A stretch of DNA of 64,000 nt. Origin: an uncultured archaeon (GTDB lineage: Archaea > Aenigmatarchaeota > Aenigmatarchaeia > Aenigmatarchaeales > JAHLMS01). Of this stretch, positions 4,507 to 51,346 are shown piece by piece. The position numbers were made by a program, and so were the translations under genes. Each line of letters begins with the position of its first letter. Position 1 is the stretch's first letter. The DNA lies in the NCBI GenBank assembly GCA_964353775.1, contig CAYGWB010000006.1, positions 115,991 through 179,990 on the forward strand, read 5' to 3'. Below the pieces are notes generated by a model. The model saw nothing but the letters and a program-made list of their open reading frames with translations, searched no databases and was not told the origin of the DNA.

Positions 4507-4803
4507 GGTGTGCCGGGCGTAGCCCGTCTTCTGTAGTAGGTATCGGTCCGCGCAGATGCGGACGTCACTTGTCCCCTGACAGCATTCGTCTAAGCTGGGT
4601 ACCCGGCCCTCCTTCATCATCAGGCCTGCTTCCCATTGCACCTTGCCGGCGTAATGCGTTTCAGCCGGAACATGTTTTCGCTCCACTGAACGCGCCCAAA
4701 CCTCTCGACTTGATCACTTGCGTGATGGCAAATGGCTGCGCCACTGATGGCGGACGGAGCTTTCTCCCCGCTTGCGCGAGGGCAGCTGTCTGCCCGGCTC
4801 ACC
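4507..4803 (-). ncRNA. Structured ncRNA, candidate RNase P RNA (SRP RNA is the alternative)
   Basis: A 297-nt ORF-poor GC-rich segment. Its ends are complementary (ggugagccgggc with gcccggcacacc), as in P1. On the minus strand it has a GCAA-tetraloop hairpin, a CR-I-like gGAGAAAGCUCCGUCC, and a CR-V-like ACAGAAGACGGGCUA 13 nt from the 3' end. A TTTAAAAA box lies at 4826-4833, just upstream. Confidence 0.4.
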
Positions 4804-5483: not shown

Positions 5484-5913
5484 AGCTTTCAAATGGAAAT
5501 AATATTATTTAAAGCTTACGCTAGTTCGAAATTGAAATAAAATTTAACCAGCAGAGGAATTTCAGGGGGTCAATAGAGGTGCAAAATCGTTGGCCGTTGG
5601 GGACTCCGAGCTGAACACGTCGCCGAAGCTTCGTGCGTACACCCGAGTTCCATTAAGCGGGTCATCTAGCCCGCGGCCATCGCCTCTTTTTCCCGGACGG
5701 TTCGGACTTAGTTCGGCGCACCGCTATAGCAGGTTCCTTCTTATAGCTACAGCTGGCGCTATGCCTTCAGTCCTTACCGCTTATCGCGTAGCTGCCCGGC
5801 ATTGCCTTTCGACAACCGGTCAACCAGTGGCGACGAACGCGCGTTCCTTTCGTACTTGCGCATTCTTCGGGTCAGGCGACTAAACACCCTCGGAAGATAT
5901 AAACCATACTGTC

Positions 5914-6123
5914 TATGTCGTCTCGCGTGGGCAAACACTAATCATAATTTACCGTAAGGGGTATCGTGCAGTCACAGCTAGCCAGAGCTAAAGCTCAGCA
6001 CGTTATCATACTTACGGTGTGCAAAACTAACCGGTCATAAAGGGTTTAGATATTCATAGCGGCTGACGCCGCTCAACTAACTTCAGATTACTTCATCCCG
6101 GTTCGAAGACGCCCACGTCGAAA
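5914..6123 (-). other. 210-nt intervening sequence in 23S domain V between GUCGUGA and GACAG (E. coli about 2598/2599, next to A2602); putative intron or IVS
   Basis: The flanking exon sequences are contiguous in all known 23S rRNAs. The insert ends carry the inverted repeat cgugggc/gcccacg, which could form a closing helix. Confidence 0.55.
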
Positions 6124-6271
6124 TCACGACGTATTGAACCCAGCTAACGTCCCCCTTTAATCAATAAACCCTTGCACCCTTGGCCGCTACTGCACGGCCA
6201 GGAGGGGGGGAGCCGACAGCGAGGTAGCAACGCGCGGGGTCGATAGGAGCTCTCGCCCGCCACGACTCTGT

Positions 6272-6422
6272 TATAGAGTGGCGATGCACAGAAACAGATC
6301 GGCTGCAACTTCCTTAGCCGACCTATCGGGTCCTCTGGATATCTATTTCTAATTCTAATCAAAAGGATTTTCCAGAAGACCCGTTACTCTGCACAACTTA
6401 TCTCTTCAGAATTTCTTCACCA
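6272..6422 (-). other. About 150-nt intervening sequence in 23S domain V inside GGGGAUA|ACAG (E. coli about 2449-2451, next to A2451); putative intron or IVS
   Basis: The exon flanks CCCCGGGGAUA and ACAGAGUCGUGGCGG are universally contiguous. An AUA direct repeat sits at both junctions. Confidence 0.55.
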
Positions 6423-9400
6423 TATCCCCGGGGTAGCTTTTCTGAAGTTACCGATATCCATCAAGGACGCTCGGCATATCGTTAGCCCATGCTTTCGCAG
6501 CTGGATCGCTTGCTATTCGCGATCCAGTCAAGCCAGCTTTTGCGCTTACACTCTACTCCAGATTTCTGACCTGGATGAGCTGACCTTAGGGCGCTCTTGA
6601 TATCCTGTCAAGAGCGTACCGCCCCAGCCGAGCGGCCCACCAATCGGTGTTCCCCCAAGTCGAGGGTTAGCCATGCGTCCACGAGATGGCAGTGTTACAC
6701 TTTCGAGTATCCAACGACCGAAATCGTTGGCATGACCTCTTCTGCCTACTCTATGAAACCGCAAACACACAGCAACGACAGGCTGCCGCAGAGCTCCACG
6801 GGGTCTTCTCTTCCCACCGAGGGTCAGTGGCCTTTTCACCACTATAGCAGGTTCGCCAGGTTCCAGCCCGGGACAGCGGGGAAGTCGTTAAGCCCTTCAT
6901 GCGGGTCGCTAATTAAGCGACAAGGGATTACGCTACCTTAAGACGGTCAGAGTTACCGCCGCCGTTAACCGGGGCTTAGGTCGGTTGAAACCAACTTTAA
7001 CACACCGGCACTGGGCAGGCCTCACTGACTGTACAGATCGTTTCCGATTAGCAGTCAGCTACGTTTTTGTTAAACAGTCGCTTCCCCCTTGTTAGTGACA
7101 CCTGCGCATCCCTGCGCAGGCAAAGGTTATACCGAAGATACCCTTCTAGATTGCCGAGTTCCCTGGACTGGTGTCTCCTGACACGCCATTGCCTTTTCAG
7201 CAAGGGGCACGTGTGTCCGTTCTTGGTACGGACATGGTGCGTCGTTCTCGCCTTCCTTTTCATGGACTCTGGAAATTTCTCCAATTCCCGCTTGCGCAGA
7301 AACTATGCACGCCCTCGGCTCCTTCTCTCCTTGACGGAACTCCGGAGCCTTCAGCGCTCAACTTACGTGGAAATATCCCAAAGTGTCGGAATGCGAGCTT
7401 GCGTCGCCGCAGCTAGCACCATGGTCACGGAATATTAACCGTGTTCCCTTTCGTCAACTTCAGTTAAGGGTTGACTTAGGACCGACTGACTCCCGGCCCA
7501 AAAAAGTTGCCGGGAAACCCTTGCCCTTTAGGCGGAGAGGATTCCAACCTCTCTTTGCTGTTACTTCTGGCAGGATTATCGATGCTGAACGGTCCATCGG
7601 AACTCACGCCCCGACTTCTACCCGAACAGCACGCCTTCCTATTCTATCGCTTTCGCGATCTCCGGTATCGGCCATGTACTTACCCCCGTCCATTTTGGCC
7701 GCACCGGCCCTCGAGAGGTCCGCTGTTACGCGTTGTTTGACGGATGGCTGCTTCTAAGCCTACCGCCCTCCTGTCTTGGGACCGGCACCAGCTTTGTGTA
7801 TTAGTACATAGTTAGGGGCCTTAACCAGAGGCTAGTTTGTTCACTTTTCGGGCACCGAGCTTACCCCAGTACCCTCACTCCCGCGGTCTTCGAGCCCAGC
7901 GTATTGTTAGTTTGTCAGGGATGCCGCCGATTTCTCAGCTTAACACCCCAAACAGTGCTTTACCCCACCGGGACCCTCACGCGAGGCTGTCCTGAGGGAC
8001 ATTTCGGAAGGAACCAGCTATCACCGTTTTCGATTGGCTTTTCACCCCTAATCCCAGGTCACCCGAGTGATTCGTAGCTCAACATCGGTATCAGCCCTCC
8101 ACGGGCCTTTCGGCCCGCTTCAGCTTACCCAGGATTAGATCAAACGGTTTCGGGTCTCACGCCCGTGACTACCCGCCCTTTCAGACGGCGCCCCTCACCA
8201 CTTGCGTGGATGCGGGCTTGTTGCTTTCGCTACGGTTACCTGCCTTCGCAGTTAGCCTCGCCACGAACGTGAACTCCCTGCCTCGTGTTTCGAAACGAAC
8301 TCCATAACCCTGTAATCGACCGCTCGTACACGCCGTTTGCACGGCTTTCCTTCGCAGTCGCACCTTTCAGGCCATGGATGACTATTACCAACTGGTTTCG
8401 GGATATTTTCACCTTCGGTGAAGAATACTTTTCAGCTTTCAGTCACCTTACTGATTTCGCTATCGGTTTCGCGAGATATTTAGGGTTGGCTGTTGATGTC
8501 AGCCACCTTTCGCCTGCATATCCGAGCAGACGTACTCGATTCCTGCAATCAACCCAACAGTCTACGCCTACGGGGCTATCACCCTTTGTCGCGCGCCGTT
8601 CCAGGCTACTTCGACTCGACTGCCAGGTCGTACGCAGATCCCACATCTTCGGCACATTACTGTGCAGAATTCGGTTCGCCCTGTTCCGCTTTCGATCGCC
8701 TTTACTAACGGAATCGCAATTGTTTTCTTCTCCTCCGCTTAATAAAATGCTTTAATTCAGCGGGTTCCCACTCCTCACGGAGCACCGGCCGAAGCCGGTA
8801 TGAGGTCACATTCGGAGATGATCGGTTCTCAGGCTGCGTGCGCCTCGCCGATCCTTTTCGCAGCTTGCTGCGTCCTTCATCGGTCTCGCGAACCAAGCCG
8901 TCCACCAGCTGGTTTATTTTGCGTGTGCGTAGGTCGATGCCTACGCTATTGACACCTGCTATTGACCCTATCCTATTCCTCTGCTGGTCTCATCGACAAA
9001 ATTGTCTCATGAGGCTCATTGGATAACAACGTTATCATTCACTGCCTCGGATGCGGCTTGCTTCACGTGTTGTTCTCATCGGGCTCTATAGCTACTCCGA
9101 CTTTCATCGCGCTTTCGCGCTCGTTTTGGGACGGTCGGTTCATCGCCCTCGATTTATCGACCTTGGCCGTAAAGCGTTGCCGCGTCACAGACGTAAAGTC
9201 TGTTATGACCCTTCCACCACGACTTGTGGTCGTGATGTGCACATTTTTTTCACCGCGTCATTTACCCCATGGGCATTTCATCGTGCTTTCGCACTCAGCC
9301 GCGTTTGCTGATTTTCATCCGCGGTGTTTGCGCGCGTATGGTATGCGCGCATCACATTTTCATGTGACTATGATTTTTGATGTTTTAGATGGATTTTGAT

Positions 9401-41400: not shown

Positions 41401-41509
41401 TGCCTTGGTGGCTCAGTCAGCAGAGCGGCTGCCTCGTACGGCATGACGGCCTTCGGCCGTCTGTTCGTGTAAGCAGCAGGTCGGGAGTGCAAATCTCCCC
41501 CAAGGCTCC
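41401..41509 (+). tRNA. tRNA-Thr (anticodon CGU) with a 33-nt intron at the canonical 37/38 site (41438-41470), CCA encoded
   Basis: Acceptor GCCUUGG/CCAAGGC, D-arm GCUC/GAGC, anticodon stem GCUGC/GCAGC interrupted after CUCGUA, and T-arm GGGAGUGCAAAUCUCCC. The spliced loop is CUCGUAA. Confidence 0.75.
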
Positions 41510-41551
41510 ATACTCAGATAAACTTAAATTCTGGGAGTATGAAATCTGCCC

Positions 41552-41728
41552 ATGATAAAATACCGTATTTTTGCCTGGAGCATGGACGTCAAGGAACTTG
41601 AAGGTGGCGTGGGCCGCAGGAACGTGCTGCTCGACCTGGTTGAGCAATTTATAAATAAACTCGGTGAAGATAAAATAGTAGCTATTACGAACCAGTTCAA
41701 CGCTATAATTGTATGGTATAGGGAGTGA
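41552..41728 (+). CDS. Small ORF (58 aa), hypothetical
   Basis: Hand translation gives MIKYRIFAWSMDVKELEGGVGRRNVLLDLVEQFINKLGEDKIVAITNQFNAIIVWYRE. It is the first of three tightly spaced small genes. Confidence 0.3.
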   Translation: MIKYRIFAWSMDVKELEGGVGRRNVLLDLVEQFINKLGEDKIVAITNQFNAIIVWYRE

Positions 41729-41732
41729 TAAA

Positions 41733-42038
41733 ATGGAATTGATTTGCTTCGTGAAAAGGGAGAACGCAAGAAAGGCGGAGGAAGCGCTGCGGAAGGACTT
41801 CGATGTCGCGGCCAAGCAGTCGATAACAATCCGCGATGCGGGTGCGCTCGGCGTCAAGGACGCAGGAGACGGCAGTTTCTTCTATGTGACAGGAACGGAC
41901 GAGGGCGTGAAAAGGTGCCAGGGGTTAATCAGGGACTTCATTTTCAACGTGAAACCAGAACTTCTGAACAAGGCTAAAGCGAAGATCAAAGAAGAGGAGG
42001 ATGCTGCAGCAGCCGGCTTCGGCGGAATCTTCGGGTGA
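41733..42038 (+). CDS. Small protein (101 aa) with a C-terminal ribosomal P-stalk-like tail
   Basis: GGGAGTGA sits before the ATG. The C-terminus KIKEEEDAAAAGFGGIFG resembles the aP1/P0 stalk tail (EEE..AGLGALFG). The N-terminal 70 aa are not P1-like. Confidence 0.5.
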   Translation: MELICFVKRENARKAEEALRKDFDVAAKQSITIRDAGALGVKDAGDGSFFYVTGTDEGVKRCQGLIRDFIFNVKPELLNKAKAKIKEEEDAAAAGFGGIFG

Positions 42039-42042
42039 TAAC

Positions 42043-42393
42043 ATGGCAAAGATGGCGATTTTCACAATAGGGGCGAACCAGATCCAGATAACTAAAATGA
42101 CCACATATGCAAGGGACAAGTGGGAGTTTGCAGGCAACTATACCGAAAACAAAAGGCTGATGGACGACGCCAGAGCGGGCAGGTTCGCCTACCTTTTGGT
42201 GTTCGATCACGAGGCCGTGGACGAGATCGTGCAGAAACAGCTGAGGAGCTGCGGCATAGAGATTCTGTGCTTCAAGGATCAGAACAGGCTCGAGCTCGCG
42301 TTGGATAATGAGAGGCGCAAGAAGGAGAAGGCCGAGAAGGAAAGGAAGGTGCGGCTGGATTTCGAGAAAGACATCGCGGTAATAAAGATCTGA
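42043..42393 (+). CDS. Small hypothetical protein (116 aa) with a K/E-rich C-terminus
   Basis: GGTGAT sits before the ATG. The start lies 4 nt after the upstream stop. Confidence 0.4.
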   Translation: MAKMAIFTIGANQIQITKMTTYARDKWEFAGNYTENKRLMDDARAGRFAYLLVFDHEAVDEIVQKQLRSCGIEILCFKDQNRLELALDNERRKKEKAEKERKVRLDFEKDIAVIKI

Positions 42394-42423
42394 TTTTTAT
42401 TCTTTGGGCGCCAAGTCTGGAAT

Positions 42424-42497
42424 GCGTCCGTAGTCTAGCGGTAGGATTTGAGCTTCCCAAGCTCGCGACCCGGGTTCGAATCCCGGCGGGCGCACCA
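42424..42497 (+). tRNA. tRNA-Gly (anticodon CCC), CCA encoded
   Basis: Acceptor GCGUCCG/CGGGCGC, anticodon loop UUCCCAA, and T-arm CGGGUUCGAAUCCCG. Confidence 0.8.
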
Positions 42498-42510: not shown

Positions 42511-43050
42511 ATGTCAACTATTTGCATGCAACAAGCACCTCCGATGCAGCCGGTACCTCCGCTCGGGCCGCCTCCTAGACAGCAAGGAACGCCACGCGAA
42601 AACATGCTTGCACACTTTCACCCTTCACGACTCGCTTTCTTCAAGCTGTACGTTTCGGCCATAGCACTCATTGTTATCACGCTTTTGCTCCAGACAGAAT
42701 TGATGCCAACCATTGTCCAACAATATAGATTATACACATTGGTGCTTATTGCACCGGCCGTGATACTTCTATTATTGGCCGAGCTCAGACGGATGACCGA
42801 TACCTATACAATAACAAACCTTACCGTTGTAGAGCGCATCGGTATCCTGCGTATCAACGAGAGCTTCGTAAACGTCGACAAAATATCGAGCACCACCATC
42901 AAGCAGTCGCTGTTAGACCGTCTGTTCGACATAGGCTCAATTGAAATGTGGTCGACGGGCGGGTCGGACGAACCTGAGATATCGATAGAAAAGATAGCGA
43001 ACGTACGACGCACAAAACAAATAATTGACCAGCTAGTGCAGCAGAGCTAG
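42511..43050 (+). CDS. Membrane protein with a bacterial-PH (bPH_2/YdbT-like) domain
   Basis: A 179-aa protein with a Pro/Gln-rich N-terminus, two TM helices, and then the ITNLTVVERIGILRINESFVNVDKISS pattern. Confidence 0.45.
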   Translation: MSTICMQQAPPMQPVPPLGPPPRQQGTPRENMLAHFHPSRLAFFKLYVSAIALIVITLLLQTELMPTIVQQYRLYTLVLIAPAVILLLLAELRRMTDTYTITNLTVVERIGILRINESFVNVDKISSTTIKQSLLDRLFDIGSIEMWSTGGSDEPEISIEKIANVRRTKQIIDQLVQQS

Positions 43051-44087
43051 ATCATCTGTAGCCTGTGAATTCTCAGATAAGGCTGCTTGTCCATCATCTG
43101 GACCTTGCCCCATACGCGGTAGCGCGCAGACGGTCGCGGTGTTATGCCCTTGCCCACAGCGATCATCCTGTTGTGCAGCCTGAATACGATGTCGCCGTTC
43201 TGATATTTCTTTATCGGATCGAGCGTACCGTGCAATACCACGCGTTTGCCGGCATGACCGGCAGTAATCTTGGTAACGTCGATTATGTGTTCATATCTTA
43301 GGAAGGCCGTTGACATGCCGAACGCTGCCGCCAATATTGCGGCGCCTACGACCAGCGGCAACCACGACGGTAACGCCGCTCCCATCGGTTCTTTCTGGAT
43401 TAGATGCGCGTTTCGTGCGGACTCTGCTGCGCTGTCGGCCAGGTTCTTTGCTACGGCCCAGTTCTGATTGCCGAAAGCGTTCTGCGCTTCGGCGAAAGTG
43501 CTCTCCGCACCGCTGACGTCCTTGCCCTCGGACTTTGCGGTCTGGATTGCTGCGGCGGCGGTCGCTATAGCAGCGCTCGCATCTGCTTCCGTAACTGTCG
43601 GTTGCTCTGACGGAGGCATCGTACAGACCTGCGTTTCTGTGTATGACTTGCAGGTGTAGTTGGTAGTTGCGTTGCACCTGTAATTTGTCCTGCTCTGATT
43701 GCTGTCAGCGCACGTTGACCATGCGGTCGGAGCTGAGCAGTTCGGACAGCTCCTTGTTCCGCCACCACCTAAGCTGCCGCCGCCTCCGCTCGGGCCGCCT
43801 CCGCCACCTCCGCTCGAACATGCGCTAGTGTTGAATGTGCAGCTCGCAGTGCAGGTCAGTGTACCGCTAACATAGCCCAAACCAGTACAGGTCTGTCCGT
43901 TGAGATTCGTGCCGTCACAGCTCTCCGATCCTGTTATAGAACCGTCCCCGCATATCTGAGTTATGTTGCCGCCGATTCCTCCGGCAGAAATATTGCCGCC
44001 GGTCTCAGCGAGCGGTGCGGCCATTGCCAGAGCTGGCAAAAGTAGCAGAATCGGAATCAATATTAGTACAGCTCGCATTTCTATCAC
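43047..44087 (-). CDS. Secreted/membrane Cys- and Gly-rich protein with a C-terminal OB-fold-like domain
   Basis: A 346-aa protein with a signal peptide, a Cys-rich region, a poly-Gly tract, a helical region, a TM helix, and a C-terminus KRVVLHGTLDPIKKYQNGDIVFRL. Its start overlaps the stop of the giant gene by 4 nt. Confidence 0.45.
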   Translation of the reverse strand: MIEMRAVLILIPILLLLPALAMAAPLAETGGNISAGGIGGNITQICGDGSITGSESCDGTNLNGQTCTGLGYVSGTLTCTASCTFNTSACSSGGGGGGPSGGGGSLGGGGTRSCPNCSAPTAWSTCADSNQSRTNYRCNATTNYTCKSYTETQVCTMPPSEQPTVTEADASAAIATAAAAIQTAKSEGKDVSGAESTFAEAQNAFGNQNWAVAKNLADSAAESARNAHLIQKEPMGAALPSWLPLVVGAAILAAAFGMSTAFLRYEHIIDVTKITAGHAGKRVVLHGTLDPIKKYQNGDIVFRLHNRMIAVGKGITPRPSARYRVWGKVQMMDKQPYLRIHRLQMI

Positions 44088-47000
44088 GCATAGATACCGA
44101 ACGCATACGTCGTCGAATAGCTGGCCGGATATGTTCCAGCCGGTATCGTCTGATTCAGTATAAGAGTTGTCCAGCCGCTCGTAATGTTCAGCGCATCGAC
44201 TGCCTCTGTCTCATTGTATGAATTCAAAATGTTATAAGTCTTCCAAGTGCCGGTCGCGTTCTGGTACTGCAATCTCGCGTAGCTGGCGACTGGTATGATG
44301 TGTCCTGAGCCGTCTGTCCAGTTCGCGACCTTCATCCTTATTCTGGTTCCGCCGGAAGCGCTGACGTTGAACGTCCACTGCCAATAGTCAGTACCGCTCG
44401 CGCTGGCTGACGTCTTGTCAGGCGTTATCGAGTTGATGAATATCGCGAAGCCTGTGTTGTCCACCGTGAAGTTCTTTATACTGCTCGTTGTATATCCTAT
44501 GTTGGCGTTGTCTGAGGCTTGCACATTTGCTTGGAAATCCGACAGGTTTGCGGCGCAGCCAGCAAAACTGCAGTTCCATGTTGCGCTCCAGATATTGTTC
44601 ACCGGATCGGTAAGGGCTAGATTAATGCTATTACCTACACCAGGCAGAACTCCAAGAGGGGTTGCATTGGTTATGACGGCTATCGTAGCATTGATTCCGG
44701 ATGAAACGCCGCCCGATATTGGATCGAAAACCTTCGCGCTGATTGTTATGTTCTGATAACGCTTGACATGATTCTGACCGAGCGGGTATGTTATCGTCAC
44801 GTTGGTCACGTTCGGGAGTGTATTGTCGACGAAATAATAGACTGTCGTTGAGTTCCTGTTGCCAGCGGTATCATTAGCAACAACTTGAAGTTCGTGTATT
44901 CCTTCAGTAAATGCCACTGACACATTTCCTGTCCAGACAGTCGGCGTTATGTTTGTGAGCACGACGCCGTTGGCTGTAACCACTGACACACCTGACGGGT
45001 CTGAGGCTGTAACGTTCACGGTCATGTTATTTGCAGGGAACACATTGCCGACATAGTACGGCGGGTTGCGATCCAGAACGACCGAGCTGATTAATGCTCC
45101 TGTTGTGTCGACGGTAAAGTTGTTCAGCACGGAGACGTTGCTGTTTCCTGCCAGGTCCGTACAGTTTATGGATATGTTGTGCTGGCCGGTCGTTAACGAC
45201 AGCGTCACGTACTGCGTCGTTCCGTTTATCACGCTTGCCAGTGTGCTAGGCACTGCGTCCAGTGTGTAATAGCAGTTCAATGTGGACGAGAAGTTGTCCC
45301 ATGGCGTGTAGATGAGCTGCGTCGGATTCGTCCAAGTGCTTCCGTTGGCCGGAGCTGTCAGATTGATGTACGGCTTGCTGCTGTCAACTGTCAGTTTCCA
45401 TATCGTGCTGTCGGAAGCGCCGCCTCCTGCATCTATGGAGCTGACCCTCCAGTACCATATGCCCTGTTGTGATGTCCAAGTGTAGTTGCGGTCAGTCCAC
45501 GTGTTGTTGTACTCGGGCGAGAGCATGTTCGGGCTGTTGTCGATCTTGATGGTGTAGTTCACAGCGCCTGAGACGTTTGTCCAGTTGAAGTAGACCGTGC
45601 TGTTGGTCGTTATCGTCCCGTCGGCCGGGCTCACCAGGTCTGGTGATGGCAGCTGTCGGATGAACGTTTCGGATGAGTCTGCAGGCCAGGACATCGTAGA
45701 ATAGAACGTGTATCCGGACGTAGCACCGCTGACAATCGTTGAATTGTCATACTCGATAGTCGCCTGAACAGTTTTGTATGGCATCCCGCTCGAGCTGATG
45801 TTGTAGACGACATGAATGATCTTCGATGTTCCGTTGGTTATTATATAGGAGGTCGGTGCGAGCTCGTATGGCGACGAAGTGTCAGAAGCACCAGGTATCG
45901 GCATGCTCGGACCGCTGCTGTCATTCCAGAGCTCGACAGCTGTCAGGTTGGTGTCGTCAGCCGTGCCAGTGAACAGAACAGAGACATTGTTTAGCGTGAT
46001 GTTCTCGCCAAAGGCTGTCAAGTTCAATCGCAACATCCCGACGCTCGTACCTCTGGCCGCAGTATACGGTGCCTCGTCGGTCCAATTAGCCGTCAATATT
46101 CCATAGACGCGCGTCGTCACTGACACACCAGATGAAGGCGTGTAGTACTGCGCTGGATTCGTGGTTATGTTGCAGGTAATCAGATGCACGCCTGCGGTTG
46201 TCGGTGTCCATGTTATGTTGGACCACCCATCGAAGAGCGTATAGTTGTTTCCCAGGAATCCGGTCACGTTGGACCAGAAGTTCACGTAGTGGCTGGAAAG
46301 CGGTGAGGTCGTGTTCGCATCCACCACCCTGCATGCCAGGTTCACTGGAGTGTTTATCTGGGTTGCTGCTGGCAGGTTTGTCTCATTGACCCTTGACCAA
46401 CCCCATATCTGGATCGGCCATAGCAGACGATAATCGTCATAATAGCTCAGGTTGGTGCTGACATTCAGGACCCATACGCCAAGCGGCGTCCAGCTCTCGT
46501 TGATGTACCACGTTACATTCTCCCAGTTCGTTGTCAGGTTGGCCATCGGTGGCGTGACGTTGGTCAGGTTGGTAGAATTGATGAACCATTTCAGCGGCGG
46601 TGGCGGCACTACATTACCGTTCTCATCAAAACCAGTGACGTTCGCGCTGATGTTCTGAGTCTTGAAGAATATCTGGCCTGACACGATGTTGGTTATGTTC
46701 AGGTACAGCTTGCCCTTTATTGTCAGATATGTGGTGTTCTGGGTCGAGCTCGTGTAGTATGGGCCAGAGGCGTTGGCCATTATCGAATAGTTGCCTGGCG
46801 TCGTAGTGTTAGGCGGGTTCCAGTCGGCCTGGCACACTCCCGGGCTTAGTATCGAGTCTGTCGTGCAGTTGGCTAGCAGTGCGGGCGAGAAAGTCGCGTT
46901 CCAGAAGCTTATGTTGATATTTGGAATTTCCGCTCCTAACTCGTCCTTGACCTCGGCCCTGAAGGTAGTTACGTATGGCGTGAAGTTGTCATTCCTGTAT

Positions 47001-50000
47001 ATCGGGTTCGGACTCACGCTCATGAATATAATATAGAGATTACCGTACAGACTGGTGCTGCCTGTCCAGTTGTTGTTCACGGTGTCATTGAAGTATAATG
47101 TCTCGTTGTCCGTGATGTTGCAGGTGATGTTGTATGGACCGACCGCTTCGTTCGTGGTGTTCCAGTTCCAGACGGCTATTCCGCTGCTGTTCGTCAGGTT
47201 CGTGCCCAACAGTGTACTATTGTCGCGCCAGAAGCGTACGGGATAGTTCGTTATGCCGGCCGAAGTGTTGACGTTCGAAACTAGGCAAGCGACATTGGCA
47301 AAAGTACCGCGCTGATAGGTCGGGCTGAGAGCAGTTGCGTTGGTTATGTTCGCCCAACCCCAGATGGTCGAGAGCGCAGAGCTGTAGGGCTCTGAACCGT
47401 TCGCCTGGATCGGTAGAACGGACGTGTTGCCGATTGCGCTGATGTTGCTGTTGTTGAGTGTGACTCCGAGCGTGAATGAATTGAACGCGGTACCGGAGAT
47501 GTTGTAGAGTACGTGCACGACCTTCCAGCCGCCGGCAGGCACGACTATCGGTTGCGTCAGGGTCAGGTTCGCGACGCCACCGTTGAAGGTCGCAGGTACT
47601 GTCAGGCTTAGCGATTTGTTCGGAATGCCCGCGCTGTCGTTCCACAGCTCAATTGCGCTGACGTTAGTGTCTGTAGCTGTTCCGGTCAGCGTCACATTTA
47701 TCTGGGTGACATTGATGGTTTCGCCTTCTGCGCTGAAGTTGAGCTTCAGCATGGCGACGCGTCTCTGGTCGACCTGAACGCCGCCAGGAGCCTCGCTAGT
47801 CGAACTCACGTTCAGCTTCCCGTAAATCCTGAGTTCGGACAAAGCGCTGTTGTTCACAGAGGCCGTGTAGTATGAGGCGTTATAGTCAGTGAAGTTGCAT
47901 GTGATGTTATGTACGCCTGCGTTTGGCCAGCTGTAGGTTATGTTGGCCCAGCCGGTGCTGTCCGTATTGTCGGCGCCCAACATTCCGCTTATACTGGACC
48001 AGAAGCGCACGATGTAGCCGTTGAGCGGCGCGTTTGTGACATTGTCAGTGACCCTGCAGCTGATGTTGACAAGCGTGTTTATCGAGCCATTGACAGGTAT
48101 CGACGTGCCGTTGATCATTGAGTAGCCCCAGATTTGGATCGCCTTTGTCTGGGTGCTGTCGAAATAATAAGTGCGATTCGCTATCGCGTTCAATGAATAG
48201 TCGCCGAGTTTGAATGTCTGGTCGACGGTCCAGCTGTAGTTCTCAGCACCGTACGGGCTAAGGGTAGTGTTCCATGTGACGTTGTTCAATGTCCATGTGA
48301 CGTTGTGGTCTGTCATTACCGTGCCGTTCTCGGCTCGCGTAGTCGAATTGACGTTGTAGGTGACGTTCCTGTAGAACTTCTGGCCGGCTATGACGTTGGT
48401 AATGTTGATGTTCAGTGCACCTTGGACGACCACCCAAGTGTAGTTCGTTGTCGATGGGTTGTAGCCTGACTTTGTCGCGTTGACCGCCAGTGTGACATTG
48501 CTAGGTTCGAAGTTGTTCGGCGGGTTCCATGTGACCGAGCAGAAGCCGATGGCGTTTGTAGTACAGTTGCAGGGCTTCGTTCCGTCCGTGCAGTTGTAGA
48601 GCAGGTTGCCCGTACTGTTGTCATACCACGAGACCGTGGCGTTCAGAACGCTCGCACCTGCGGTGTCCTTGATGTGAGCGGAGAGCGAGGCCGTGTACGG
48701 CGAGTAGCTGTCGTTCCTGTAGATGAATTGGTTGTCGACGCTGTACTCGAAGATGCTCAAGGTGGCAACTACGGATATCAGTGAGGAGTTCGAGTTGCTG
48801 GCAGATGCCGTGTAATATTTTATATCGCTGCCGGTGATGTTGCACGTTACGTTGTAGACTCCTGCGGCCGCCCAACTATAAGTGGTGTTGGCCCAGCCGG
48901 TGCTGTCCGTGGTGGATGAATTTATCAGTGTGTCATTTGACCAGAACTGCACGCTGTAGCCTGATATGTTGGCGTTTGTTACGTTGTCGGAAACCCTGCA
49001 TGCCAGAGCGGTTGTCGTGTTGGCCGGCGTGCTGGCCGGTATTGCAGTGCCGTTGATCATTGAGTAGCCCCAGATTTGGATCGCCTTTGTCTGGGTGCTG
49101 TCGGTGAAGTAGGTCAAGTTTGCGGTCGCGTTCAGCGAGTAGTCGCCAATCTTCAGCCCAGTACCTACAGTCCAGCTGTAGTTCTCAGCACCGTACGGGC
49201 TAAGGGTATTGTTCCATGTGGCATTGTATAGCCGCCATGTTACACTATGACTGGTCATCGCGGTTCCGTTCTCGGCGCGCGTTGTCGAATTTATGAAGTA
49301 GTTGACGTTCCTGTAGAACTTCTGCTCGTCCACTACGTTGGTCATGTTTAAGATCAATACGCCTTGAACGACCACCCAGGTAGAATTCGTGGTCGATGGA
49401 TAATAGTTCGTTCCTGTAGCGTTTACGTCGAGCGTGATGTTGTTCGGCTCGAAGTTGCTTGATGGGTTCCACTGCACAGAGCAGAAGCCTATTGGGTCAG
49501 TCGTGCAGTTTCCTATCAAAGCACCGTTAGTGGTGTCCCACCAGGTGACGTTCGCGTTCTGCACGCTATCACCAATCGCATCCTTGATGTGGGCGGACAG
49601 TGTCGTGATGTAAGGCGAGTAGCTGTCGTTCCTGTAGATGTAAGCGTTATCGCGGGCGTACTCGAAAATTACCAATCTGTCCGTCAGATTTATCTGACCT
49701 GCCTTGCCTGCAGCATTCAGGTCAGCCGTATAGTAGAGCGTGGCGTTGTCGGTGATGTTGCATGAGATGTTGTAGAGTCCTACTGGATCGGTCGGCACGT
49801 AGTTCCATGTGGCATTTCCGACTGAATTTGTCAGTATCGTCGTGTTCTTGACGCCGTTCTTCCAGAAGTCCACAGGATAGTTGGCTATGCCGTCTCCTGT
49901 GACGTTGTCCCGGACCCTACAGATTATCGGAATCGGAATGAGGCTGCGGTTCTGCGAGTAGTCCATGGCTGTCATGTTTGTGATGTTCGAATAGCCCCAT

Positions 50001-51346
50001 ACCTGAGCGTTGACCTTCTGGTCGGTATCATCATAGTACGATTTGTTGGCGACGGCCTTCACGTAGCTCCATCCGAGGGTCTCGTTTCTGCTGACGTTCC
50101 ACGTAGTGTTCTCCGGTCCGTACAGCGGCGTGATGTTCTTGGTCGCGCCGAGATACCAGCTGACATTCACGGACACGTTGTTTCCGAATTCATTCACAGT
50201 CGTCGAGTTGAGCCAGTAGCTGACGTTCCTGTAGAACTTCTGCCCCTCAGTAACGCTCCTGATCGTTATTCCCAGCCTTCCTCTGACATCGACGCTCGTG
50301 CTTGTCGTCGTGAACGGAGTGTAGTAGTCCTTTGTGCCGTTGACGTTGATTGTCTGTGAGCCTGGCGCGTAGCTGTCCGGTGGGTTCCAGATTATCCAGC
50401 ATCTTCCGCTGGCTGTCGTACAGTTGCAGGATCCGCTCGAGGGACCGTTAGATGTTTGGGTGCAGTTGTCCAGTAAATTGGAAGTTCCATTCCAAAATCT
50501 AACAGCAACTCCGTCTACAGTGGCGGAATAGCTGTCACGCACGGTCAGCGATATGTTGAGAGTATTAGGCGTATCACTGTTGCTGCGATATATGTAGAGA
50601 TTATCCCTATTGAGTTCTGCTAAAGTCAGCGTGTCATTCACGTTCGACAATCCGGACACATAACTGAAATCCACATTGTAGTATGAATAATCGGATATGC
50701 TGCAGCTAATATTGTGTTGGCCTGGAAGGTCACCGCCACCTGGCGACCATGTCCATGTTGCGAGACCGCTTGGGTTGGTTGATACGGTTGTTTGTGGGAC
50801 ACCGCCCTTCATGAACGTGATTGGGTAGCTGTCTATGTCACCAGTGCTGTTCGAATCCGTCACCTTGCATGTGTATGGGATGCTGCCGACGCCGCGCAAG
50901 ATGCCGGGCGAACTCAACGGGGTCGTGTTCGTGAGATTTGAATATCCGAATACGGTAAATTGTTTCTGGCTAGTGACGTTCTGGCTTCCGGTCGAATTAT
51001 TGGCGAATATTTTGACATTATATACACCTAGGTTCGAGCCAGAGTTGGTAGAGATAACATGGAATGACCAGTTCGAGGCCAAGCCAGCGATTGCCGTATC
51101 ATTTGCCCAAGAGGCGCCAGCATCCTGATGGCTGAGCCACGTGAAACTTGCGGTTTCGTTCCATTTCGCGCTTACATTGACAGCCTCTCCTTTGTGTATG
51201 ATGCTTGCGTTCACAGCGGCATCGGTCGTATAGCCTATGGCAGCGAGCGCCTGCACCGCATAGAAAGCGAAGGCTATGACTATCAAGCCGACGAGCGCCA
51301 TCGCGCCCAGCTTCGCCAGACCCTTATTTCTTCGGTATATAGACAT
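44084..51346 (-). CDS. Giant (about 2400 aa) N-glycosylation-sequon-rich surface protein with tandemly repeated beta-rich modules (adhesin-like)
   Basis: A single 7.26-kb ORF. The N-terminal signal anchor MALVGLIVIAFAFYAVQALA starts at Met16 (nt 51301). It carries hundreds of N-x-S/T sequons and about six copies of a roughly 310-aa module marked by AIQIWGYS / PIQIWGWS / QFTVFGYS. An FN3-like segment lies near the C-terminus. Confidence 0.65.
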   Translation of the reverse strand: MSIYRRNKGLAKLGAMALVGLIVIAFAFYAVQALAAIGYTTDAAVNASIIHKGEAVNVSAKWNETASFTWLSHQDAGASWANDTAIAGLASNWSFHVISTNSGSNLGVYNVKIFANNSTGSQNVTSQKQFTVFGYSNLTNTTPLSSPGILRGVGSIPYTCKVTDSNSTGDIDSYPITFMKGGVPQTTVSTNPSGLATWTWSPGGGDLPGQHNISCSISDYSYYNVDFSYVSGLSNVNDTLTLAELNRDNLYIYRSNSDTPNTLNISLTVRDSYSATVDGVAVRFWNGTSNLLDNCTQTSNGPSSGSCNCTTASGRCWIIWNPPDSYAPGSQTINVNGTKDYYTPFTTTSTSVDVRGRLGITIRSVTEGQKFYRNVSYWLNSTTVNEFGNNVSVNVSWYLGATKNITPLYGPENTTWNVSRNETLGWSYVKAVANKSYYDDTDQKVNAQVWGYSNITNMTAMDYSQNRSLIPIPIICRVRDNVTGDGIANYPVDFWKNGVKNTTILTNSVGNATWNYVPTDPVGLYNISCNITDNATLYYTADLNAAGKAGQINLTDRLVIFEYARDNAYIYRNDSYSPYITTLSAHIKDAIGDSVQNANVTWWDTTNGALIGNCTTDPIGFCSVQWNPSSNFEPNNITLDVNATGTNYYPSTTNSTWVVVQGVLILNMTNVVDEQKFYRNVNYFINSTTRAENGTAMTSHSVTWRLYNATWNNTLSPYGAENYSWTVGTGLKIGDYSLNATANLTYFTDSTQTKAIQIWGYSMINGTAIPASTPANTTTALACRVSDNVTNANISGYSVQFWSNDTLINSSTTDSTGWANTTYSWAAAGVYNVTCNITGSDIKYYTASASNSNSSLISVVATLSIFEYSVDNQFIYRNDSYSPYTASLSAHIKDTAGASVLNATVSWYDNSTGNLLYNCTDGTKPCNCTTNAIGFCSVTWNPPNNFEPSNVTLAVNATKSGYNPSTTNYTWVVVQGALNINITNVIAGQKFYRNVTYNVNSTTRAENGTVMTDHNVTWTLNNVTWNTTLSPYGAENYSWTVDQTFKLGDYSLNAIANRTYYFDSTQTKAIQIWGYSMINGTSIPVNGSINTLVNISCRVTDNVTNAPLNGYIVRFWSSISGMLGADNTDSTGWANITYSWPNAGVHNITCNFTDYNASYYTASVNNSALSELRIYGKLNVSSTSEAPGGVQVDQRRVAMLKLNFSAEGETINVTQINVTLTGTATDTNVSAIELWNDSAGIPNKSLSLTVPATFNGGVANLTLTQPIVVPAGGWKVVHVLYNISGTAFNSFTLGVTLNNSNISAIGNTSVLPIQANGSEPYSSALSTIWGWANITNATALSPTYQRGTFANVACLVSNVNTSAGITNYPVRFWRDNSTLLGTNLTNSSGIAVWNWNTTNEAVGPYNITCNITDNETLYFNDTVNNNWTGSTSLYGNLYIIFMSVSPNPIYRNDNFTPYVTTFRAEVKDELGAEIPNINISFWNATFSPALLANCTTDSILSPGVCQADWNPPNTTTPGNYSIMANASGPYYTSSTQNTTYLTIKGKLYLNITNIVSGQIFFKTQNISANVTGFDENGNVVPPPPLKWFINSTNLTNVTPPMANLTTNWENVTWYINESWTPLGVWVLNVSTNLSYYDDYRLLWPIQIWGWSRVNETNLPAATQINTPVNLACRVVDANTTSPLSSHYVNFWSNVTGFLGNNYTLFDGWSNITWTPTTAGVHLITCNITTNPAQYYTPSSGVSVTTRVYGILTANWTDEAPYTAARGTSVGMLRLNLTAFGENITLNNVSVLFTGTADDTNLTAVELWNDSSGPSMPIPGASDTSSPYELAPTSYIITNGTSKIIHVVYNISSSGMPYKTVQATIEYDNSTIVSGATSGYTFYSTMSWPADSSETFIRQLPSPDLVSPADGTITTNSTVYFNWTNVSGAVNYTIKIDNSPNMLSPEYNNTWTDRNYTWTSQQGIWYWRVSSIDAGGGASDSTIWKLTVDSSKPYINLTAPANGSTWTNPTQLIYTPWDNFSSTLNCYYTLDAVPSTLASVINGTTQYVTLSLTTGQHNISINCTDLAGNSNVSVLNNFTVDTTGALISSVVLDRNPPYYVGNVFPANNMTVNVTASDPSGVSVVTANGVVLTNITPTVWTGNVSVAFTEGIHELQVVANDTAGNRNSTTVYYFVDNTLPNVTNVTITYPLGQNHVKRYQNITISAKVFDPISGGVSSGINATIAVITNATPLGVLPGVGNSINLALTDPVNNIWSATWNCSFAGCAANLSDFQANVQASDNANIGYTTSSIKNFTVDNTGFAIFINSITPDKTSASASGTDYWQWTFNVSASGGTRIRMKVANWTDGSGHIIPVASYARLQYQNATGTWKTYNILNSYNETEAVDALNITSGWTTLILNQTIPAGTYPASYSTTYAFGIYA
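46380..50930. repeat. Tandem array of roughly 940-950-bp repeats inside the giant gene
   Basis: Blocks of 24 to 54 nt are identical between copies at 48107-48160/49048-49101, 48217-48253/49158-49194 and 47935-47958/48882-48905. More diverged copies sit near 46393, 47352 and 49990. Confidence 0.7.

Follow-up and report, generated by a model that had tools for sequence, protein, structure and literature searches.

A ribosomal stalk-type C-terminal peptide on a predicted alpha/beta protein family spread over several archaeal phyla

What does the C-terminal peptide of the ribosomal stalk do on a protein that shares nothing else with the stalk? The question is raised by a 64,000-nucleotide stretch of DNA from an uncultured archaeon of the Aenigmatarchaeota (contig CAYGWB010000006.1, positions 115,991 to 179,990, forward strand; hereafter the window), in which three small open reading frames (ORFs), ORF1, ORF2 and ORF3, lie between two transfer RNA (tRNA) genes. 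The middle one, ORF2, ends like the archaeal stalk proteins aP1 and aP0. Archaeal and eukaryotic ribosomes alike gather their GTPases and ABCE1 by the stalk tail, a universal handle that to our knowledge has so far been known on stalk proteins only. An earlier interpretation of the window, made from its letters without database searches (the sequence-only reading), had pointed out the likeness and regarded ORF2 either as a highly divergent, stand-alone stalk protein or as a factor that mimics the stalk tail. The features of ORF2 on which the analysis turns are the following.

41733-42038, + strand: ORF2, 101 amino acids (aa), ending in KIKEEEDAAAAGFGGIFG
41733-41948, + strand: ORF2 residues 1-72, acidic alpha/beta domain
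41955-42020, + strand: ORF2 residues 75-96, long C-terminal helix leading into the tail, assigned by DSSP on the AlphaFold2 (AF2) model
41982-42038, + strand: ORF2 residues 84-101 and stop codon, stalk-type tail KIKEEEDAAAAGFGGIFG

Results

The C-terminal peptide of ORF2

The C-terminal end of ORF2 reads ...EEEDAAAAGFGGIFG. Scored on a matrix of canonical aP1 ends (final 12 residues; 107 proteins with 28 distinct tails), it reaches +16.8 bits; of the 507 ORFs that the six frames of the window offer at 60 aa or more, the runner-up has -2.8 bits, and the top score among 629 unrelated proteins from related loci is -8.3 bits. A regular expression for the tail likewise matches ORF2 alone within the window. 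When the ORF2-family profile (85 sequences) is compared by hhalign with an aP1 profile (28 sequences), the last 19 columns align with 58% identity (E 5e-5), and no alignment is found outside them. When one genome for each GTDB species was searched with a degenerate DNA pattern encoding E/Q-E-[ED]-x-A-A-x-G-h-G-x-h-F, at least 124 matches came back, comprising at least 90 members of the ORF2 family, at least 13 aP1, at least 14 aP0-like proteins and at least 7 internal chance matches; among the matches listed, the C-terminal peptide is restricted to stalk proteins and the ORF2 family. Matrix score, profile-profile alignment and pattern scan thus bear out the likeness noted earlier, and by these comparisons the ORF2 tail genuinely matches the C-terminal peptide of the archaeal stalk and does not do so by chance.

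Within the family the tail follows the consensus K-I-K-E-E-E-[ED]-x-A-A-x-G-[FM]-G-x-I-F-G, and the final I/L-F pair is retained in 170/178 and 167/178 family sequences. Across 85 diverse members with a mean column identity of 40%, just four columns are conserved at 90% or more. Three of these (G95, G97 and F100) lie in the tail, so that no other part of the protein is as strongly constrained. As to what such a peptide can do, the Pyrococcus aP1 14-mer SEEEALAGLSALFG alone binds aEF1A with a Kd of 10-24 µM, and binding is abolished on deletion of the last three aP1 residues, LFG; the aP1 tail also binds aEF2, aIF5B and ABCE1, and it binds aEF1A-GDP as well as aEF1A-GTP, and crystal structures of aP1-factor complexes show it in its pocket (PMC6791870).

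Breadth of the ORF2 family

Close homologues of ORF2, 97-105 aa long, number 78; wherever they are named, they are Aenigmatarchaeota. Searching 1.84 billion cluster representatives exhaustively with the family profile (E up to 1e-3) retrieved at least 219 clusters at 50% identity, nearly all of 96-103 aa, matched end to end and tail-bearing. Members occur in Aenigmatarchaeota, Micrarchaeia and Thermoplasmatota (including Natronoplasma and Methanomassiliicoccales), and further in Methanoperedens (including the enrichment strain BLZ2), Methanocellales and one metagenome-assembled genome (MAG) of the Halobacteriales; membership is here read from names and genome titles, and the taxonomic sample of the tail-pattern scan is incomplete. 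The family is kept even in the very small genomes of DPANN archaea. Its database names are in every case 'hypothetical protein' or a plainly wrong automatic label, and Pfam, NCBIfam, PHROGs and PADLOC yielded no family for ORF1-3 or for ten distant relatives of ORF2. The sequence-only reading, which had considered a single protein, was right about a real stalk-type tail, but ORF2 is no one-off; it belongs to a large family that spans several phyla. Our literature search found no description of a non-stalk protein with a stalk-type tail, and the strings GMGMIFG and GFGGIFG in no paper. The stalk C-terminal peptide is itself already known; what appears to be new is to find it on an unrelated scaffold that is conserved over several phyla.

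Some family members are built differently. The 485-aa homologue P0181, encoded on a 16 kb contig, carries an intein-like insert with LAGLIDADG_3 and helix-turn-helix (HTH) matches; the insert immediately precedes the conserved 'Y-I-S-G' strand, and its flanks rejoin to a normal protein of ~98 aa with the tail ...ESFGGIFG. Further architectural variants are P0127, P0148 and P0149 (175-194 aa) and P0195 and P0221 (129-148 aa), some with two tandem N-domains and one tail, others with a CxxC...CxxC zinc-ribbon-like insert in the N-domain.

The N-terminal domain and the helix

The AF2 model of ORF2, computed from a 38-sequence alignment, has a predicted local distance difference test (pLDDT) score of 84.5 and a predicted template modelling (pTM) score of 0.71. 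It comprises a strand (residues 2-8), helices 9-21 and 23-26, strands 30-35 and 47-53, helix 56-65, a short strand near residue 70, helix 75-96 and a disordered end. As modelled, the elements of the N-domain run beta-alpha-alpha-beta-beta-alpha(-beta), which may resemble a type I KH or ferredoxin-like sandwich. Residues 73-90 read KPELLNKAKAKIKEEEDA, the helix being modelled over 75-96. Both the model and the hhalign result agree with the earlier expectation that the first 70 residues are alpha/beta and differ from the helical aP1 dimerisation domain.

The turn between alpha1 and alpha2, at the position of the KH loop, is acidic, K-D-F-D in ORF2 and D-D in most family members, and is followed in the family by a conserved V-S-R-Q-S; the median isoelectric point (pI) of the family is 5.2. 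Type I KH domains, such as those of Nova, FBP, PCBP and hnRNP K and the divergent ones of N4BP1/KHNYN, have a GXXG loop, whereas ORF2 has none. ORF2 has no match to Pfam KH, and three distant members reach sub-threshold values only (E 0.015-0.16). Because the GXXG loop is absent and the domain acidic, classical RNA binding by the N-domain is unlikely and a protein partner more plausible; an acidic domain is better suited to a protein partner, the basic aEF1A for example, than to RNA. A Foldseek search of the model against the PDB returned nothing significant, with KH and PII/GlnK-type sandwiches ranked equally, and the family profile gave chance-level matches only among PDB sequences (the YbaB C terminus, a cyclase and the KH region of PNPase).

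ORF2 and the ribosomal stalk

The tails of ORF2 and of aP1/aP0 share an acidic run, two to three Ala residues and a terminal G-hydrophobic-G/S-x-hydrophobic-F-G; aP1 and ORF2 are also alike in overall size (~100 aa), and one DNA pattern retrieves both classes. Beyond this the two proteins diverge. Whereas aP1 has a four-helix dimerisation domain that binds the aP0 spine, ORF2 has the alpha/beta N-domain; the Ala/Pro/Gly-rich hinge of aP1 (like AAPAAAA...) has no equivalent in ORF2, in which a helix precedes the tail. The aP1 gene lies in the L11-L1-L10-L12 cluster downstream of aP0 (L10), the ORF2 gene outside that cluster. Even the tails can be told apart, the archaeal stalk form being ...EEE-AAA-G-L-G-A-L-F-G and that of the ORF2 family G-[F/M]-G-x-I-F-G. 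In agreement, ORF2 does not match PF00428 at E up to 1, whereas canonical P1 proteins do, and its gene never adjoins aP0, either in its conserved contexts or in the other phyla sampled.

A contig of a Thermoplasmatales MAG (locus L086, CAYMMP010000023.1) holds both kinds of protein. The family member (1219-1527) ends in ...GMGMIFD; the canonical aP1 (7090-7410), preceded by aP0, ends in ...AAAGLGALFG, and the aP0-aP1 genes (7090-7876) lie 5.5 kb from the family gene on the opposite strand. The two tails of this genome read ...EDSAASGMGMIFD in the family member and ...EEEAAAGLGALFG in aP1. Members of the family thus occur alongside a normal stalk. The lineages that hold the ORF2 family also have annotated canonical P1. 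In view of the missing PF00428 match, the tail-only alignment, the separation from aP0 and this coexistence, the proposal of a divergent stand-alone stalk protein finds no support: as judged from sequence, ORF2 is not a ribosomal stalk protein.

Layout of the locus

The ORF2 gene is flanked by the following features.

41402-41510, + strand: tRNA-Thr(CGU), found by ARAGORN only with introns allowed
41402-41438, + strand: tRNA-Thr exon 1
41439-41471, + strand: 33-nt tRNA-Thr intron
41472-41510, + strand: tRNA-Thr exon 2 and encoded CCA
41518-41529, + strand: TATA-box-like element ATAAACTTAAAT, putative promoter of the ORF1-ORF2-ORF3 transcript, just downstream of tRNA-Thr
41552-41728, + strand: ORF1, 58 aa
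42043-42393, + strand: ORF3, 116 aa
42424-42497, + strand: tRNA-Gly(CCC), with an orthologue at the same place in the related loci L001, L003 and L006

This arrangement of an intron-containing tRNA-Thr, three co-directional ORFs of 58, 101 and 116 aa and a tRNA-Gly is as the sequence-only reading had described it, including the Shine-Dalgarno (SD)-like motifs ahead of all three ORFs. GGGAGT stands 13 nt ahead of the ORF1 start, GGGAGTGAT 3 nt ahead of ORF2 and GGGTGAT 3 nt ahead of ORF3; a (G)GTGAT-like motif also precedes the ORF2 orthologue in six related loci. By codon comparison between the window and L131, in which synonymous and non-synonymous changes number 21/3 for ORF1, 37/13 for ORF2 and 36/20 for ORF3, all three are real genes under purifying selection.

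The anticodon TGT with an intron at 33/34, as given by ARAGORN for the tRNA-Thr, was rejected as a mis-splice. Comparison with the intron-less tRNA-Thr(CGT) orthologue of L001, which the exons match, puts the splice site at the canonical 37/38 position; the gene thus reads Thr(CGU), and its intron is 33 nt long. A tRNA-Thr(CGT) orthologue stands at the same place in L001, L005 and L006.

L131 and L132 carry the TATA-like element ATAAACTTAAAT unchanged, and L003 has a nearly identical copy ~40 nt ahead of its ORF2 orthologue. In distant relatives ORF2 starts ~40 nt past the tRNA, and a TATA-like element directly follows the tRNA in all. We infer from this placement that the element drives an ORF1-ORF2-ORF3 transcript; a scan for sigma-70-type promoters and terminators is uninformative for an archaeon. 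ORF1 is found only in the window, L131 (1025-1201) and L132 (795-971), and is absent from L127, L129, L003, L005, L006 and L001. Its 95% identity to the L131 copy makes it more conserved than the neighbouring genes. Given its restriction to the closest relatives and the conserved TATA-like element, ORF1 seems to have been inserted recently between the putative promoter and ORF2. With 23 nt between the TATA-like box and the ORF1 ATG, the messenger RNA may have little or no leader.

Homologues of ORF3 (40-83% identity) directly follow the ORF2 orthologue in L003, L005, L006, L127, L129, L131 and L132, with a spacing of 4 nt in the window, 4-6 nt in relatives and a 4-nt overlap in L006. ORF3 is missing beside the L001 orthologue and from all other lineages sampled, which marks it as a clade-specific operon partner. 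ORF2 is thus probably co-transcribed with ORF3 in this clade, and in the closest relatives with ORF1 as well. The word-indexed homologue search for ORF3 yielded three close relatives; the AF2 model built from three sequences was unreliable (pLDDT 59.8) and was not used.

Synteny around ORF2

The sequence-only reading had compared the tRNA-flanked position to that of small accessory islets, and the idea that ORF1-3 form a mobile or accessory islet inserted between tRNA genes draws on the tRNA genes at both flanks, on the limitation of ORF1 to a narrow clade and on a variable giant-protein insertion just downstream. Conserved core synteny speaks strongly against it. The order tRNA-Thr(CGT), ORF2, usually ORF3, tRNA-Gly(CCC), bPH_2, tRNA-Val(GAC) and MJ0043_C recurs in Aenigmatarchaeota, and it holds in distant ones whose ORF2 proteins are just 50-75% identical. 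Ahead of the tRNA-Thr, on the - strand, lie genes for an S-layer protein, a DUF7343 regulator, an MJ0538-like protein and a radical-SAM enzyme. The G+C content of the putative islet is 0.50-0.51, against 0.52 for the window; ORF1-3 have no PHROG or PADLOC matches, no integrase is found, and ORF2 is vertically distributed over several phyla. We consider the islet idea exceedingly improbable. Across 90 loci the neighbours of the ORF2 gene are lineage-specific (a cytidylyltransferase-like gene, an HDAC-like gene, PolB, FtsZ) and include no cross-phylum partner; by its genomic context ORF2 is a stand-alone core gene.

Between bPH_2 and tRNA-Val, at window positions 43047-51346 on the - strand, lie a 2420-aa ORF (44084-51346) with one Ig-like Big_13 match and a 346-aa Gly/Cys/Thr-rich ORF (43047-44087). 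The two flanking genes are adjacent in relatives such as L003, and L128 has a similar giant gene (>1587 aa) at this place; the interval looks like a variable surface-protein insertion.

The tRNA introns of the syntenic block vary as well. The tRNA-Thr gene has no intron in L001 and L006, one of 13 nt in L005 (4332-4418) and one of 33 nt in the window and L127; in L003 (about 5880-5960) it has a short intron and was missed by ARAGORN. Among the orthologues of tRNA-Gly(CCC), that of L006 (6575-6663) alone carries an intron, of 15 nt. The window is archaeal by its large-subunit (LSU) ribosomal RNA (rRNA) and RNase P RNA. The LSU rRNA match (5578-8925, - strand) extends over 3348 nt for a model of 2987 positions, and the ~360 extra nt represent insertions or an intron; the RNase P RNA (4508-4802) lies ~780 nt away on the same strand. 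Small-subunit (SSU) and 5S rRNA were not found within the 64 kb, and the rRNA genes therefore appear unlinked.

Discussion

The evidence favours the other option of the sequence-only reading, a factor that mimics the stalk tail, and we predict that the ORF2 tail binds translational GTPases or ABCE1, with a probability of roughly 0.5. ORF2 would be a free carrier of the stalk-type peptide, off the stalk; in each family member an acidic alpha/beta domain (~70 residues) is followed by a helix (~20 residues), and the flexible peptide forms the C terminus. The tail would insert into the hydrophobic pockets that receive the aP1 tail on aEF1A, aEF2, aIF5B and ABCE1, and the acidic N-domain would supply a second interaction. 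As to direction, we infer that ORF2 either competes with the ribosomal stalk for factors or acts as an adaptor that tethers a factor to the partner of its N-domain. More tentatively, and at somewhat less than even odds, a free and possibly oligomeric carrier of this kind could serve many archaea (DPANN, Thermoplasmatota, Methanoperedens, Methanocellales) as an off-ribosome hub for aEF1A, aEF2, aIF5B or ABCE1. Such a hub would titrate factors away from the stalk and thereby tune translation, or it would deliver a factor to a stalk-less site, such as the small subunit when translation is initiated or ribosomes are recycled.

Several observations weigh against this proposal. The stalk-like motif is short, 7-14 residues, which leaves room for convergence on a different partner, and where aP1 has L at positions -5 and -2, the family tail consistently has F/M and I, respectively; this signature could reflect a different specificity, a tuned affinity or a preferred factor. 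Translation genes are not linked to the ORF2 family in any lineage sampled, and no significant relative of the N-domain, in structure or in sequence, points to a ligand. Within the 64 kb of the window, to which the check for aP1 in the source genome was confined, there is no aP1-type N-domain, and no Aenigmatarchaeota-named aP1 occurs among the best 120 of 7936 aP1-profile matches. For the source genome, coexistence of ORF2 with aP0/aP1 is probable from the general presence of aP1 in archaea together with the family-level result.

The tail may instead be a short linear motif for some other partner, its likeness to the stalk being convergent and functionally irrelevant. The shortness of the motif, its own signature G-[FM]-G-x-I-F-G as against G-L-G/S-A-L-F-G in aP1 and the lack of linked translation genes suit this view, and the weak profile match to the YbaB C terminus shows that Gly-rich hydrophobic ends exist elsewhere. 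The likeness, however, takes in the acidic run and the Ala pair over 19 aligned columns, no third protein class with this C terminus stands among the matches listed in the genome-wide scan, and the residues essential for aEF1A binding (L/M-F-G) are conserved as I-F-G; we therefore rate a merely convergent tail as rather unlikely, if still a serious contender. A place on the ribosome itself, with ORF2 as a highly divergent paralogue or replacement of aP1 that adds factor-recruiting tails, would account for the tail, the aP1-like size and the retention in very small DPANN genomes. It would also fit the window without a canonical aP1, and the intein of P0181, as inteins tend to occupy essential genes. 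Against it stand the alpha/beta N-domain, which neither matches PF00428 nor aligns with aP1 beyond the tail, the missing Ala/Pro-rich hinge, a gene never found beside aP0 in conserved contexts, the canonical aP0-aP1 pair on the same Thermoplasmatales contig and the annotated canonical P1 of family-holding lineages, and this role strikes us as improbable.

A special case of tail-mediated binding to GTPases or ABCE1 would be a dedicated aEF1A partner analogous to aEF1B, for instance an exchange or holding factor, in which docking would fall to the tail and action on the GTPase to the acidic ferredoxin-like domain. The beta-alpha-beta-beta-alpha-beta sandwich of ORF2 belongs to what we take to be the fold class of the aEF1B exchange domain, and the N-domain is suitably acidic. 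The aP1 tail, moreover, binds aEF1A in both its GDP and its GTP form (PMC6791870). Yet the family profile retrieves no aEF1B chain in a search of PDB sequences, and the conserved DD-x-V-S-R-Q-S is without a known aEF1B counterpart, which makes this narrower role improbable.

A free carrier of a stalk-type peptide would follow the same portable-handle principle as the eukaryotic P1/P2 peptide SDDDMGFGLFD, on which ricin A chain, trichosanthin, Shiga toxins and GCN2 dock, and the Thermoplasmatota family tail ...EDSAASGMGMIFD comes close to the eukaryotic M-G-F-G-L-F-D. The eukaryotic peptide, however, sits on ribosomal proteins, the ORF2 tail on another, non-stalk scaffold; in the literature we found no free cellular protein that carries a P1/P2-type peptide on another scaffold.

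Several hundred proteins so far annotated as 'hypothetical' are here given a family definition, and ORF2, being small and soluble with a defined 14-residue motif, is open to direct binding assays. That very small DPANN genomes have kept the family speaks for a housekeeping role. The presence of the same handle on an unrelated acidic domain in several phyla suggests that the handle is used away from the stalk, possibly for regulation by competition, for factor delivery or for holding a pool of factors. If this is true, the ORF2 family would represent an unrecognised layer of translation control built on mimicry of the stalk tail.

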